Positions 17,974-49,794 of a stretch of DNA of 64,000 nucleotides are shown piece after piece. This stretch comes from Escherichia coli (GTDB lineage: Bacteria; Pseudomonadota; Gammaproteobacteria; Enterobacterales; Enterobacteriaceae): the NCBI RefSeq assembly GCF_003334315.1, contig NZ_QOWR01000024.1; one strand, written 5' to 3'. Made by a program: the position numbers and the translations under genes. How positions within the stretch are numbered: position 1 is the first letter of the stretch; each line of letters opens with the position of its first letter. The notes beneath the pieces were generated by a model, which saw nothing but the letters and a program-made list of their open reading frames with translations, was not told where the DNA came from and searched no databases.

Positions 17974-18612
17974 TTAACTCCTTAATTCCGCAATTTCACC
18001 TGCGGTCAGATAACGGATCGGGCGGTCACCGAGAATAAAAATCAGCTTTGCCGTTTCCTCCAGCTCTTCCATATTGTTGGCGGCTTCTTGCAGGCTTTCA
18101 CCGCAAACCACTGGGCCATGATTTGCCAGTAAAAAAGCCTGATTGTCTGCTGCCAGTTCCGCCAGATCCTGTGCGATGCGTTTATCGCCCGGTCGGTAAT
18201 AAGGCACCAGCGGGACATTTCCCATCCGCATCACCACGTATGGTGTGAACGGACGAATAACGTTGCTGCTGTCCAGCCCTTGCAGGCAGGAAAGCGCCGT
18301 CGACCATGTGCTGTGCAAATGCACCACCGCTTTACAACGCGGATTGTTGCGATACAGCGCCAGATGAAAGAGCACCTCTTTCGAGGGTTTGTCACCACTT
18401 AACCATTCGCCATCCGCGGCGACTTTGGAAAGCCGCTGCGGATCGAGATTGCCCAGGCATGAACCTGTCGGTGTCGCCAGTAAATTCCCGTCAGGTAAAA
18501 GCAGCGACAGATTGCCAGCCGAACCGGTTGCATAGCCGCGCTGAAAGAATGAACTGGCAATCCGCGTCATCTCCTCTCGCAAAGACTGCTCTACTTTTGC
18601 GAAATCGCTCAT
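17974..18612 (-). CDS. ygbL: Class II aldolase/adducin-family protein (3-oxo-tetronate 4-phosphate decarboxylase), 212 aa
   Basis: Class II aldolase-like sequence; synteny. Confidence 0.85.
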
Positions 18613-25789: not shown

Positions 25790-27868
25790 TTAAATCAATG
25801 CCGATTTATCAATTCCCAGCCGCTTCATCCGTGACAGCAGGGTCGTGCGTTTCAGCCCCAGACGTTGCGCAGCGCCTTTAGGCCCGGCAACCACGCCGTT
25901 GGTTTCTTTCAGCACGCGCACAATCAACTGATATTCATCTTCGCCCTCCAGGGCGACAACCGTTGCGGCAGGCGGCGTTTCAGGTTCCGGTAAAACAATA
26001 TCTGGCAATGACAGCTGCAGCACGTTACCGCGTGTTAGCAATACCGCGCGCTCAATGACGTTTTCCAGTTCGCGTACGTTACCCGGCCACTCCATGTTGC
26101 TCAAGGTGCGCAGCGTCTCGGCAGGAATGCTGTCGATATTGCGCCCCAGACGACGGGCAATTTTGAAGGTAAAGGCTTTCGCCAGCAGCGGAATATCTTC
26201 CGGACGCTCGCGTAGTGGCGGCAGGTGAATCGGGAATACGTTCAGGCGGTAATAGAGATCGCTACGGAACTCACGGTCGGCGACCATTTTTTTCAGATCG
26301 CGGTTAGTCGCGGCGATTAGACGCACGTCCGTCTGAATGATTTTGTTGCTGCCGAGACGTTCAAACTCCTGTTCCTGCAATACACGCAGCAACTTCGGCT
26401 GTAACTCCAGTGGCATATCGCCCACTTCGTCGAGGAACAGGGAGCTTTTATCCGCCAGTTCAAAACGACCGATACGCTGGGCGCTGGCACCGGTAAAAGC
26501 CCCACGCTCATGACCAAACAGATCGCTTTCCAGCAATCCGGCAGGCATCGCCGCGCAGTTCATTTTGACCATGCGGCGATTATTACGCCCACTGAGATTA
26601 TGGATCGCACGGGCAATCAGCTCTTTACCCGTGCCAGTTTCACCGAGGATCAGCACGGTACTGTCACTTTGCGCCACCATTTCAACTTGTTTAAGCACGC
26701 TGTACATGGCTTCGCTGCGGCCAATAATCTCGCCAAATTCACTATCAACATTGTTGAGCTGCTCGGTCAGGGCGAGGTTTTCATCAACCAGCCGTTCTTT
26801 CAGACGATGGATTTCCTGATAGGCGAGGGCGTTATCGACAGCGATTGCCACACGTTCGGCAATCTGGCGCAGTAAATTCAGATTGGTAGTGGTAAACACT
26901 TTCTCTTCGCATTGCGCCAGTTTCAGCACGCCCAGCATGGTGTCGCCAGACATCAGCGGTAACAGGCACAAGGTTTGAATCTGGTTGCCCCAGGTGTCGA
27001 ACAACATGCGTTCATAGGGGGCTAAATCGTCCCGCTCGTGGAGATTGATCAGCAGCATCTCTTTACTTTTGAACACGCGTTCGGTGAGGGTTCCGGCTTC
27101 ATCGACTTCGCTCTGTTCGTGGGCGGGATGCTGTTTATCAAGATAGTGAGTGGAGTAGATGTTGAGTTTGTTTTTACGGTGGCTGCGTAAGACGATACTG
27201 ATATCGTCAATGTCGAAATAGTAATGGATTTCTTTGGCGACTTCGCTGACCAGTTCGTCCATATCCAGGCGGGAAAGCACCGCGTTGGTGATGGCGACCA
27301 GGATGCGGAAGTTATCGCGTTCCCGGCATAACAACTCATAGTCGACATTGTTAACGACGCGGCTCTGGATTTGTTCGGTGACGACAGAAACGATCTGCGT
27401 AAATGTTTGCAGACGATTGAACTCTTTTTCGCTCCAGGGGCGATCGTCATAACGAATAAATTCACAGCCACCAAAAATATGCCCTTCCGCCGCCAGTGGC
27501 ATCAGGCAATAGTGACCAAATTTTGGGTATAGCCCACCTGCGTCCAGCTGCGGCCAGGTTTCACAAAATTCTTCGTAACTGCAATGCAGCGTATCAGGGC
27601 GCGACAAAATGCTGCGTACCGGACCGTGTGCCAGAACAGTTTCGTCTTCATATTTAATGGGGGTGTCTTTTTCACGCGACGCGTAATAAGACGCACGTTG
27701 AGTCTGCGCTTGCCACAACACAATAGCCGCGTTGTCGGCGAGCGCAGAACGCTTTACCAGTTGCGAAAGAGCCTCACACAGCGAGGCCAGATCGGGCTGC
27801 TGCAATAGTGTCCGAGTGATGTCGAACAACCCTTGTTGTCCGAGATCACTCATCGGTGTATATGACAT
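25790..27868 (-). CDS. fhlA: Formate hydrogenlyase transcriptional activator (sigma54 enhancer-binding protein), 692 aa
   Basis: Start set at MSYTPMSDLGQQGLF; AAA+ motifs GETGTGKE and GAFTGA; C-terminal HTH. Confidence 0.95.
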   Translation of the reverse strand: MSYTPMSDLGQQGLFDITRTLLQQPDLASLCEALSQLVKRSALADNAAIVLWQAQTQRASYYASREKDTPIKYEDETVLAHGPVRSILSRPDTLHCSYEEFCETWPQLDAGGLYPKFGHYCLMPLAAEGHIFGGCEFIRYDDRPWSEKEFNRLQTFTQIVSVVTEQIQSRVVNNVDYELLCRERDNFRILVAITNAVLSRLDMDELVSEVAKEIHYYFDIDDISIVLRSHRKNKLNIYSTHYLDKQHPAHEQSEVDEAGTLTERVFKSKEMLLINLHERDDLAPYERMLFDTWGNQIQTLCLLPLMSGDTMLGVLKLAQCEEKVFTTTNLNLLRQIAERVAIAVDNALAYQEIHRLKERLVDENLALTEQLNNVDSEFGEIIGRSEAMYSVLKQVEMVAQSDSTVLILGETGTGKELIARAIHNLSGRNNRRMVKMNCAAMPAGLLESDLFGHERGAFTGASAQRIGRFELADKSSLFLDEVGDMPLELQPKLLRVLQEQEFERLGSNKIIQTDVRLIAATNRDLKKMVADREFRSDLYYRLNVFPIHLPPLRERPEDIPLLAKAFTFKIARRLGRNIDSIPAETLRTLSNMEWPGNVRELENVIERAVLLTRGNVLQLSLPDIVLPEPETPPAATVVALEGEDEYQLIVRVLKETNGVVAGPKGAAQRLGLKRTTLLSRMKRLGIDKSALI

Positions 27869-31208: not shown

Positions 31209-31559
31209 TCACTCCTGGTCTATTTCTATCCGCCGAATCTGTAAACCGTCGTCTGCCACAATCTGCAGCATGTCACCATGACACTGTGGACAGCGGCGGA
31301 CGCGCTGGGTCAGTAGCGTCACATACTGTTGGCATGTTTCACACCAGCATTCGGCCTCTTGTTCTTCGAGGTGCAGTTTACAACCTTCCGCCACGCTGCC
31401 GCGGCAAACCAGATCAAAACAAAAGGCAAGAGAGCTGGTTTCGACACAAGAAAATGCGCCAATTTTGAGCCAGACCCCAGTTACGCGTTTTGCGCCGTGT
31501 TTTGCGGCCTGCTGTTCGATCAATTCCAGTGCCCGTTGGCAGAGGGTTATTTCGTGCAT
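31209..31559 (-). CDS. hypA: Hydrogenase nickel-insertion protein HypA, 116 aa
   Basis: Start set at MHEITLCQRALE; zinc motif CxxC...CPxC. Confidence 0.93.
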   Translation of the reverse strand: MHEITLCQRALELIEQQAAKHGAKRVTGVWLKIGAFSCVETSSLAFCFDLVCRGSVAEGCKLHLEEQEAECWCETCQQYVTLLTQRVRRCPQCHGDMLQIVADDGLQIRRIEIDQE

Positions 31560-31590
31560 ATCGCCTCCCATTAACTATTGCCAGCTACAA

Positions 31591-31606
31591 GCAATAATTG
31601 TGCCAG
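31591..31606 (-). promoter_or_regulatory. Candidate sigma54 (-24/-12) promoter for the hyp operon
   Basis: Minus-strand TGGCAC-N5-TTGC (reverse complement of GCAATAATTGTGCCA), GG-N10-GC spacing, about 35 bp upstream of hypA. Confidence 0.5.
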
Positions 31607-31630: not shown

Positions 31631-31678
31631 ATGTCGATGATGTCGAAATGACACGTCGACACGGCGACGAAATTCATC
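31631..31678. promoter_or_regulatory. Putative FhlA upstream activating sequence in hyp-hyc divergent region
   Basis: TGTCGAAATGACA and CGACGAAATTCA motifs; related motifs recur at 32283-32337 and 43955-43995. Confidence 0.4.
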
Positions 31679-31718
31679 TTTAGCTTAAAAATCTCTTTAA
31701 TAACAATAAATTAAAAGT

Positions 31719-31735
31719 TGGCACAAAAAATGCTT
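31719..31735 (+). promoter_or_regulatory. Candidate sigma54 (-24/-12) promoter for hycA operon
   Basis: TGGCACAAAAAATGCTT with GG-N10-GC spacing, about 35 bp upstream of hycA. Confidence 0.5.
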
Positions 31736-31770
31736 AAAGCTGGCATCTCTGTTAAACGGGTAACCTGACA

Positions 31771-32232
31771 ATGACTATTTGGGAAATAAGCGAGAAAGCC
31801 GATTACATCGCACAGCGGCATCGTCGCCTACAGGACCAGTGGCACATCTACTGCAATTCGCTGGTTCAGGGGATCACGTTATCGAAAGCGCGCCTGCATC
31901 ACGCCATGAGCTGCGCGCCGGACAAAGAACTCTGTTTCGTCCTTTTTGAACATTTTCGCATTTACGTCACCCTGGCGGATGGCTTTAACAGCCACACCAT
32001 CGAGTATTACGTCGAAACAAAAGATGGCGAAGACAAACAGCGGATTGCGCAGGCGCAACTGAGCATTGACGGCATGATTGATGGCAAGGTCAACATCCGC
32101 GATCGCGAACAGGTTCTGGAACACTATCTCGAAAAAATCGCTGGCGTTTACGACAGCTTATACACCGCTATTGAAAACAATGTGCCGGTGAATTTAAGCC
32201 AACTGGTAAAGGGACAAAGCCCGGCAGCATGA
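31771..32232 (+). CDS. hycA: Formate hydrogenlyase regulatory protein HycA, 153 aa
   Basis: MTIWEISEKADYIAQRHRRLQDQWHIY...; matches HycA. Confidence 0.93.
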   Translation: MTIWEISEKADYIAQRHRRLQDQWHIYCNSLVQGITLSKARLHHAMSCAPDKELCFVLFEHFRIYVTLADGFNSHTIEYYVETKDGEDKQRIAQAQLSIDGMIDGKVNIRDREQVLEHYLEKIAGVYDSLYTAIENNVPVNLSQLVKGQSPAA

Positions 32233-32356
32233 GCTGAGGCTTTGCCCGTTTTGCAGGCGTTACGCCTGTTTGGGGATGGGCGTGTCGATGAGTGTCGAAA
32301 ATGACATTTCATCGGCATGTTTTCGTCAAAAATGACAATCACCTGAGGAATGCCTG

Positions 32357-39791: not shown

Positions 39792-42682
<2,891 letters not shown>

Positions 42683-42767
42683 CGGATTTTATCCTGTTAT
42701 CAGTAGGGTAGATGTAGTTGTTATCAGTCGACGTGACGGAAAAATGCCGATGCTGAAACGGAATTAA

Positions 42768-42854
42768 GAAACCGGTTTCACAAAATCATGAATAGTTGTC
42801 ACTAAATAAGCAAGAGAGTGAATTGTTCATTTTTTATATTTGTGAAACCGGTCA
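42768..42854. promoter_or_regulatory. asc promoter region with two AscG-type (GalR/LacI family) operator palindromes
   Basis: Perfect palindrome GAAACCGGTTTC at 42768-42779 and related TGAAACCGGTCA at 42843-42854 in the ascF-ascG divergent region. Confidence 0.45.
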
Positions 42855-42941
42855 CCTGAATATTTTTCCCGCCGATTGTGCAAGGACAATCGGCAAACGG
42901 TGCAGTACACTGCGTTGATTGCGTGTAAAGGGATGAAAATG

Positions 42942-43952
42942 ATGACGACGATGCTGGAAGTGGCGAAGCGCGCCGGGGTTTCAAAAGCGACCGTTTCCCG
43001 CGTGCTTTCAGGTAATGGCTACGTCAGCCAGGAGACTAAAGATCGCGTGTTTCAGGCGGTAGAAGAGAGCGGTTACCGTCCAAACTTGCTGGCGCGCAAT
43101 CTGTCGGCGAAGAGTACTCAGACGCTGGGGCTGGTAGTGACCAACACGCTTTACCACGGCATTTATTTTAGTGAATTACTCTTTCATGCCGCGCGAATGG
43201 CGGAAGAGAAAGGGCGGCAGTTGCTATTGGCAGATGGTAAACACAGCGCAGAAGAAGAGCGCCAGGCGATTCAGTATCTGCTGGATCTGCGCTGCGACGC
43301 GATCATGATTTACCCGCGTTTTTTAAGCGTGGATGAGATCGATGACATCATTGACGCGCACAGTCAGCCGATAATGGTGCTTAATCGCCGCCTGCGCAAA
43401 AACAGCAGCCATAGCGTCTGGTGCGATCATAAACAGACCAGTTTTAACGCCGTGGCAGAGTTGATAAACGCCGGGCATCAGGAGATTGCTTTCCTTACCG
43501 GCTCGATGGATTCCCCCACCAGCATTGAACGTCTTGCCGGGTATAAAGACGCGCTGGCGCAGCATGGTATTGCGCTCAATGAAAAACTTATCGCTAACGG
43601 TAAATGGACGCCTGCCAGCGGGGCCGAAGGGGTAGAAATGTTGCTCGAACGTGGGGCTAAATTTAGCGCGTTAGTTGCCAGTAACGACGATATGGCGATA
43701 GGTGCGATGAAAGCGTTACACGAGCGCGGCGTAGCGGTGCCAGAGCAGGTGTCAGTTATCGGATTCGATGATATCGCTATTGCCCCCTACACCGTTCCGG
43801 CGCTCTCCAGCGTAAAAATTCCGGTGACTGAGATGATTCAGGAAATTATTGGACGGCTGATTTTTATGCTCGATGGCGGGGATTTCTCACCGCCGAAAAC
43901 CTTCAGCGGAAAACTGATCCGCCGCGACTCACTCATTGCTCCTTCGCGATAA
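42942..43952 (+). CDS. ascG: LacI/GalR-family repressor of asc operon, 336 aa
   Basis: Start set at MTTMLEVAKRAGVSKATVSRV (HTH); periplasmic-binding-protein-like core. Confidence 0.9.
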   Translation: MTTMLEVAKRAGVSKATVSRVLSGNGYVSQETKDRVFQAVEESGYRPNLLARNLSAKSTQTLGLVVTNTLYHGIYFSELLFHAARMAEEKGRQLLLADGKHSAEEERQAIQYLLDLRCDAIMIYPRFLSVDEIDDIIDAHSQPIMVLNRRLRKNSSHSVWCDHKQTSFNAVAELINAGHQEIAFLTGSMDSPTSIERLAGYKDALAQHGIALNEKLIANGKWTPASGAEGVEMLLERGAKFSALVASNDDMAIGAMKALHERGVAVPEQVSVIGFDDIAIAPYTVPALSSVKIPVTEMIQEIIGRLIFMLDGGDFSPPKTFSGKLIRRDSLIAPSR

Positions 43953-44100
43953 ACATTGTCATCACATGTCATCGTCACTAGTGTCGATGACATCGTTTTT
44001 CCTGCATTACAGAAATTAATTTCCTTAAATAACAGTAAATTAAAAACTGGCATGATTTGTGAATGTATCGGCGCATTAACTGTCATTGCTGGAGAATTTG

Positions 44101-44628
44101 ATGAACCGTTTCATCATTGCTGACGCGAGTAAATGTATTGGTTGCCGTACCTGTGAAGTAGCGTGCGTGGTTTCTCATCAGGAAAATCAGGATTGTGCAT
44201 CGCTGACCCCGGAAACTTTTTTACCGCGTATCCATGTCATTAAAGGTGTGAACATTTCCACGGCGACAGTTTGCCGTCAGTGTGAAGATGCACCGTGCGC
44301 TAACGTCTGCCCGAATGGTGCTATCAGCCGTGATAAAGGGTTTGTTCATGTGATGCAGGAACGTTGCATTGGTTGCAAAACCTGCGTTGTGGCTTGCCCG
44401 TATGGTGCGATGGAAGTGGTGGTACGTCCGGTGATCCGCAACAGCGGCGCGGGTCTGAATGTACGGGCTGACAAAGCCGAAGCCAATAAATGCGACCTGT
44501 GCAACCATCGTGAAGACGGCCCGGCGTGTATGGCGGCTTGCCCGACTCATGCGCTGATTTGTGTCGATCGTAATAAACTTGAACAACTGAGCGCAGAAAA
44601 ACGCCGCCGTACGGCGCTGATGTTCTAA
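44101..44628 (+). CDS. hydN: Electron-transport iron-sulfur protein HydN, 175 aa
   Basis: Start set at [22 protein letters not shown]; four ferredoxin Cys clusters. Confidence 0.93.
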
Positions 44629-49777: not shown

Positions 49778-49794
49778 TGCAGATTGCGTGCCAG
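49778..49794 (-). promoter_or_regulatory. Candidate sigma54 (-24/-12) promoter for norVW
   Basis: Minus-strand TGGCACGCAATCTGCA (GG-N10-GC), about 50 bp upstream of norV. Confidence 0.55.

Follow-up and report, generated by a model that had tools for sequence, protein, structure and literature searches.

The TGTCG/TGACA-like motifs that recur in the hyp, hyc and hydN control regions of Escherichia coli can be read with high confidence as upstream activating sequences of the formate regulon, that is, as predicted enhancers for the activator FhlA. This reading had been put forward in an earlier note on the same DNA, and it is supported by the location of the motifs in control regions of FhlA/sigma-54-dependent operons with sigma-54 promoters, by their rank in a scan with a published FhlA matrix, by their conservation and by their presence upstream of fdhF. 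The feature is already known, as it represents classical formate-regulon control and not a new finding. The E. coli formate-regulon FhlA sites reportedly go back to Birkmann & Böck 1989, Lutz et al. 1990, Schlensog et al. 1994 and Leonhartsberger et al. 2000. These studies are cited here through PMC3844500, PMC4987338 and PMC7658346.

The window, by which we mean the whole stretch of 64,000 nucleotides (64 kb) that was analysed, carries fhlA-hypEDCBA, hycABCDEFGHI, ascBFG and hydN-hypF, a gene order taken from the RefSeq annotation of a K-12 record identical to the window (Table 1). Its segment 31400-32500 matches E. coli K-12 MG1655 with 100% identity and was found in 5,426 of 5,426 complete E. 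coli genomes. All transcription start positions given here are estimates from the -12 elements. The distance from the hycA start to hydN, 12.3 kb in the window, is ~8.9-9.0 kb in Escherichia sp. MOD1-EC7003, E. whittamii and E. albertii, so that the ascBFG segment (compared with window positions 39792-43952) seems to be wholly or partly missing there.

Table 1. Genes, promoters and predicted regulatory elements of the formate regulon in the window.
Feature	Position	Strand	Sequence or remark
fhlA (formate-responsive sigma-54 activator gene)	25790-27868	-	RefSeq annotation, L001 8391-10469
hypEDCBA	hypA start codon at 31559	-	Same strand as fhlA; RefSeq annotation
hyp operon sigma-54 promoter (-24/-12)	31590-31606	-	AGCAATAATTGTGCCAG; minus strand reads CTGGCACAATTATTGCT
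hyp-hyc enhancer (predicted)	31632-31662		TGTCG (31632-31636), TGTCGAAATGACA (31641-31653), CGTCGACAC (31654-31662)
IHF-like site	31701-31713	+	TAACAATAAATTA, one mismatch to WATCAANNNNTTR, 18 bp upstream of hyc -24
hyc operon sigma-54 promoter	31718-31734	+	TTGGCACAAAAAATGCT
hycA	31771-32232	+	RefSeq annotation
hycA-hycB enhancer (predicted), distal module	32283-32306		TGTCG-ATGAG-TGTCG-AAAA-TGACA, a longer composite than in the earlier note
hycA-hycB enhancer (predicted), proximal module	32320-32337		TTTTCGTCAAAAATGACA; 20 nt between its end and the hycB start codon
hycB	from 32357	+	GTG start codon; hyc operon continues to hycI
ascB, ascF		-	RefSeq annotation
ascG		+	RefSeq annotation
hydN enhancer (predicted)	43966-43993		Palindrome ATGTCATCGTCACT/AGTGTCGATGACAT with dyad CGTCACTAGTGTCG (43973-43986)
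Candidate IHF-like site upstream of hydN	44030-44042	+	TAACAGTAAATTA, two mismatches to WATCAANNNNTTR
hydN-hypF sigma-54 promoter	44047-44063	+	CTGGCATGATTTGTGAA, non-canonical -12 element; conserved in 8 sequences
hydN, then hypF	hydN start codon at 44101	+	RefSeq annotation

A weight matrix for FhlA, derived from 13 characterised sites and with the consensus TGTC-RAWRA-TGACA, has been published (PMC7658346, Table 2). When the ~128,000 positions of the window were scanned with it, 32293-32306 ranked first (16.7 bits), 31632-31645 second (15.3 bits) and 32324-32337 fifth (12.5 bits). Column 14 of this matrix totals 14 rather than 13. The 13 sites behind the matrix were sought among the E. coli candidates with an ambiguous result; the matrix probably includes sites from other species or uses another register. 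Another consensus, CATTTCGTACGAAATG, is given in PMC4987338 and attributed there to Leonhartsberger 2000; TGTCGAAATGACA has one half of it, CGAAATG, at its centre. As dyads, the two published consensus sequences cannot be superimposed. As a scanner, the 16-mer CATTTCGTACGAAATG overlaps one of the sites (32319-32334, 5 mismatches), which is among 12 places that are equally mismatched, and it is a poor descriptor.

That closely related motifs recur in formate-regulon control regions is borne out by their clustering and by their conservation across species. The window contains a single copy each of the exact 13-mer and the exact 14-mer, and relaxed searches with these words alone were not significant, as would be expected if the recurrence were a chance likeness of short AT-rich palindromes in intergenic DNA. 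However, the sites cluster. The dyad YGWCR-N4-TGWCR gave 13 strand matches against 4.46 +/- 2.79 expected, a number reached in 1 of 100 shuffles; these matches represent 10 places in the 64 kb, four of which (31632, 32293, 32324 and 43973) fall within three control regions that together occupy ~480 bp, or ~0.75% of the window. For the half-site words TGWCR/YGWCA, the two densest 60-bp intervals are the hycA-hycB and hydN regions, and the hyp-hyc region ties for third place with an interval inside ygbL. The ygbL cluster (18466-18525) contains four such words and, as it is part of coding DNA and has no sigma-54 promoter close by, is probably due to chance. Because the dyad and the half-site words were chosen after the sites had been seen, the cross-species results are the stronger evidence.

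A search with HycA provided 80 hyc loci of Enterobacteriaceae from more than 10 genera, including Escherichia, Citrobacter, Salmonella, Enterobacter, Klebsiella, Kluyvera, Kosakonia, Raoultella and Lelliottia. The arrangement of hypA, divergent hycA and then hycB is kept in all 80, and the most conserved intergenic DNA consists of the motif blocks and the sigma-54 promoters, whereas the DNA between the blocks is not conserved. Judged by this comparison, the motif blocks are under strong purifying selection. A search of the 80 hyc loci for fdhF found none; the fdhF upstream regions were collected by scanning metagenomes with the fdhF 5' coding sequence, which provided 99 distinct regions, of which most could be aligned to E. 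coli only with gaps. The earlier note had named a lack of the motif upstream of fdhF as the result that would speak against its reading. In E. coli, the dyad CGTCAAAACTGACG (L002 706-719) is located ~104 bp before the estimated fdhF start, and the search in other genomes detected the dyad in 96 of the 99 metagenomic regions, where ~0.02 per region would be expected by chance. Its distance from the -24 element is 85-87 bp in 90 of these 96 regions and 76-77 bp in the other 6. With sites that are deeply conserved and hold a fixed promoter distance in the fdhF regions, the probability of a mere chance likeness is practically negligible, and this explanation is refuted by the conservation data. 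The metagenomic fdhF footprint reads TTCGWCA-CGTCA-N4-TGACGA, followed by TTTTCGTCAG, which suggests that the recurring unit is an 8-bp half-site, TTTCGWCA (reverse complement TGWCGAAA), equal to the TGTCGAAA of the earlier note.

A matching dyad, CGACACGGGTGTCG, is also present upstream of hyfA, at about -128 from the estimated hyfA start, in a region that offers no good match to the A-rich 14-mer. HyfR, a paralogue of FhlA, has a DNA-binding domain related to that of FhlA. It could be argued on these grounds that the sites are read mainly by HyfR, or by an unrelated protein, rather than by FhlA, but we regard this as highly improbable. In the literature, including the sigma-54 regulon tables for Salmonella, FhlA is named as the activator of hyc, hyp, hydN-hypF and fdhF (PMC4987338), and secondary statements place FhlA binding upstream of fdhF and hyc. 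Moreover, the published FhlA matrix selects precisely these sites, fhlA itself is encoded beside them in the window, and the adjacent hypA-hycA-hycB arrangement is kept in the orthologous loci. Recognition by HyfR alongside FhlA is possible, and it would supplement the explanation by FhlA and not replace it.

In the hyp-hyc divergent region, direct reading of the sequence confirms TGTCGAAATGACA where it had been described, as well as the candidate sigma-54 promoters proposed on both sides. The hyp promoter is the top sigma-54 matrix match in the 64-kb window, and its TGCCA and GCAATAA show a conservation of at least 95% (79 sequences); the hyc promoter is the third-best match, with TGGCA and TGCT conserved. 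The second-best match, TGGCACGCAATCTGCA at 49778-49793 (minus strand), equals the published norV promoter motif CTGGCACGCAATCTGCA, which indicates that the window also contains the NorR/norVW sigma-54 system. The motifs reported for hypA, hycA and hydN from sigma-54 ChIP-seq (PMC4591121) are letter for letter CTGGCACAATTATTGCT, TTGGCACAAAAAATGCT and CTGGCATGATTTGTGAA, and those of fdhF and hyfA are likewise identical to the promoters located in this analysis. Between the hyp and hyc promoters, positions 31632-31653 read TGTCG-ATGA-TGTCG-AAA-TGACA, so that the element is a composite of three to five half-sites and longer than the single 13-mer of the earlier note. The FhlA matrix prefers an overlapping 14-mer, TGTCGATGATGTCG (31632-31645), over that 13-mer, and the spacing from TGTC to GACA in this element is N5 and not N6. 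Across genera, the element is kept as TGWCGA-N3-TGWCGAAATGACAYGTC, and it is one of four conserved features of the hyp-hyc spacer, the others being the two sigma-54 promoters and an AT-rich IHF-like site. The hycA 5' untranslated region TCTCTGTTAAACGGGTAACC (31747-31766) is conserved across genera as well, as TCTC...TTAA.CGG.TAACC, beyond the needs of a ribosome-binding site alone.

Relative to the estimated starts, the hyp-hyc cluster (31632-31662) occupies about -113 to -83 for hyc and about -53 to -83 for hyp. We measured enhancer-promoter spacings on the alignment columns of the orthologous loci (L004-L083). From the invariant GACA (31650), the hyc -24 element (31720) is 48, 59-62 or 70-71 bp away, with no intermediate distances, and the hyp -24 element (31604) is 44-46 or 55-57 bp away; the spacing of the enhancer core to both divergent promoters therefore shifts among genera only by steps of ~10-12 bp. 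Such changes by whole helical turns would fit looping activation from one face of the helix; the spacing classes track clades, so that they stand for no more than a few independent insertions or deletions. Of 81 orthologous sequences, 57 carry the IHF-like WATCAANNNNTTR with at most one mismatch, compared with 11% of shuffled segments, E. coli itself having one mismatch, and the site starts mostly 17-19 bp upstream of the hyc -24 element. Upstream of hydN, the candidate IHF-like site is offset from TGGCA by 18 bp, the same distance as at hyc. IHF may bind at both of these sites. The hyc (31697-31734) and hydN (44026-44063) promoter regions share a near-identical block, TTAAATAACA(A/G)TAAATTAAAA..TGGCA.

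The motif arms described upstream of hydN were recovered as TGTCATCG (43967-43974) and CGATGACA (43985-43992), and they prove to be the outer arms of a 28-bp palindrome at 43966-43993 (14+14 nt, 93% complementary, no spacer), whose inner dyad CGTCACTAGTGTCG fits YGWCR-N4-TGWCR. The hydN element is thus a nested palindrome that arranges the same half-sites as the hyc-region motifs in a different way. Counted from the estimated hydN start, it occupies about -107 to -82. In 8 sequences from Escherichia, Salmonella, Citrobacter and Intestinirhabdus, GTCATCGTCACT.GTG.CGATGACA is invariant, and in Citrobacter the element is a perfect palindrome.

Between hycA and hycB, GTGTCGAAAATGACA is present at 32292-32306 as had been noted; CGTCAAAAATGACA is present too, at 32324-32337, one base from the position previously given to it (32323-32336). 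By contrast, the view that these motifs adjoin a sigma-54 promoter does not hold, as the cluster is in fact ~704-758 bp upstream of the hyp start and, at 32283-32337, ~540-590 bp downstream of the hyc start. A 13-nt direct repeat joins the two modules (32294-32306 and 32325-32337, 31 bp apart). The hycA-hycB spacer retains little beyond four motif blocks, GTGTCGA, GTGTCG, GACA and TTTCGTCAAAAATGAC, and the hycB ribosome-binding region. In 71 non-Escherichia sequences, the first three of these blocks are at least 90-95% conserved, and TTTCGTCAAAAATGAC (32321-32336) has at least 95% identity to E. coli at each position across more than 10 genera. Neither an internal sigma-70 promoter nor a terminator was found above chance between hycA and hycB. 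From its sequence and position, the pair of modules would be a remote enhancer inside the hyc operon rather than a promoter-adjacent one. Lutz 1990 and Schlensog 1994 reportedly identified the hycA-hycB site as an enhancer for the divergent hyp promoter ~700 bp away. A hairpin, CAGGCG-TTA-CGCCTG, is found 3' of the hycA stop codon (32254-32268); Citrobacter and Salmonella carry different, longer inverted repeats there, and the segment is missing in Enterobacter, Klebsiella and Kluyvera. Inside hycA, a sigma-54-like sequence, TGGCACATCTACTGCA (31840-31855, plus strand), scores 15.0 bits, compared with 15.3 for the true hyc promoter. It overlaps the hycA codons W24-H-I-Y-C28, and it looks like a by-product of coding constraint because the Cys codon is TGT in about one-quarter of the orthologues, which breaks the -12 GC. 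The main text of PMC4591121 gives no separate ChIP-seq peak for it.

With 20 nt between the end of the invariant block and the hycB start codon, the hycA-hycB blocks may be suspected of acting at the RNA level, as a hairpin or as a protein or small-RNA target that affects hycB translation, instead of or in addition to their role in DNA. The E. coli RNA 32278-32356 folds to -28.2 kcal/mol (z ~-4.1 relative to mononucleotide shuffles), and TTTCGTCAAAAATGAC is conserved more uniformly than the equivalent hyp-hyc half-sites. However, the consensus fold of 69 sequences retains only two short dyad stems and displays no compensatory change (covariation term -0.1). The long stem of E. coli needs 32307-32319, which is poorly conserved and deleted in Enterobacter, the blocks match no Rfam family, and the motif is also present ahead of fdhF and hydN, in DNA that is not transcribed. 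An RNA-level role is therefore very unlikely, and we continue to read the hycA-hycB modules as a predicted FhlA enhancer.

In comparison with known systems, the window sites correspond to the FhlA upstream activating sequences of fdhF, hyc, hyp, hydN-hypF and hyf in the same organism, at the same loci and with the same sequences; they share the location ~100 bp ahead of sigma-54 promoters, a candidate IHF-like site lies in between, the same element is found at fdhF, and nothing of substance differs. The departures in detail are that the 14-bp FhlA matrix exceeds the 13-mer described for the hyp-hyc region by one base and that the hydN element is a nested palindrome and not a single dyad. Other activators of sigma-54 promoters have related arrangements. 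The three NorR sites at norV (GT-N7-AC; PMC2831303) are also inverted repeats upstream of a -24/-12 promoter, and NorR, like FhlA, is a GAF-domain, ligand-sensing activator, but it is a different protein with another core and spacing, and its effector is NO instead of formate. GlrR, an activator of the same family, has sites at glmY/glmZ with the same TGTC/GACA arms (TGTC-N10-GACA; PMC4987338); their spacer is 10 nt, compared with 5-6 nt for FhlA sites, and they belong to another regulon. The NtrC enhancer at glnAp2 activates sigma-54 transcription by looping from clustered dyad sites, as proposed for FhlA, and it can work across hundreds of base pairs, as is reported for the hycA-hycB modules; NtrC differs in its sites (TGCACC-N5-GGTGCA) and in being controlled by phosphorylation rather than by ligand binding.

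We can therefore outline how the sites may work. FhlA-type enhancers classically lie ~80-130 bp upstream of a sigma-54 (-24/-12) promoter. The estimated positions of the predicted enhancers relative to their promoters are -113 to -83 for hyc, -107 to -82 for hydN, about -104 for fdhF and about -128 for hyf, and the exception is the hycA-hycB pair of modules, 540-760 bp from either promoter. FhlA oligomers activated by formate, encoded in the same window, would bind clusters of half-sites of the type TGWCG(AAA)/(TTT)CGWCA, commonly as dyads with GWC-N6-GWC spacing and with additional half-sites about one helical turn from the dyad; the putative physical contacts of FhlA and its stoichiometry at each site belong to this model. 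A bend at the IHF-like site just upstream of -24 may then loop the DNA so that the bound oligomer meets the closed complex of RNA polymerase and sigma-54, and hydrolysis of ATP would open the promoter. The 31632-31662 cluster would serve the hyc promoter from about -100, and the 43966-43993 palindrome would serve hydN-hypF from about -95. The 32283-32337 modules would act as a remote enhancer, assigned to the divergent hyp promoter on the strength of what the classical literature is said to hold. A more elaborate proposal, which we consider doubtful, is that TTTCGTCAAAAATGAC is both the nucleating FhlA site of the remote enhancer and a cis element of the hyc mRNA that affects hycB translation and that, separately, FhlA reads the 8-bp TTTCGWCA in flexible arrangements, such as N5 and N6 dyads, nested palindromes and direct repeats one helical turn apart. 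If true, the flexible half-site reading would reconcile the two discordant published FhlA consensus sequences.

In summary, the sites belong to the classical control of fermentative hydrogen production in E. coli, and the value of the present analysis lies mainly in their correct annotation. The cross-species footprints provide a modest refinement, comprising the conserved hycA-hycB block, the promoter spacing by whole helical turns and the near-universal fdhF dyad at a fixed distance. These footprints could also aid the design of FhlA-responsive promoters for hydrogen engineering or formate biosensors.
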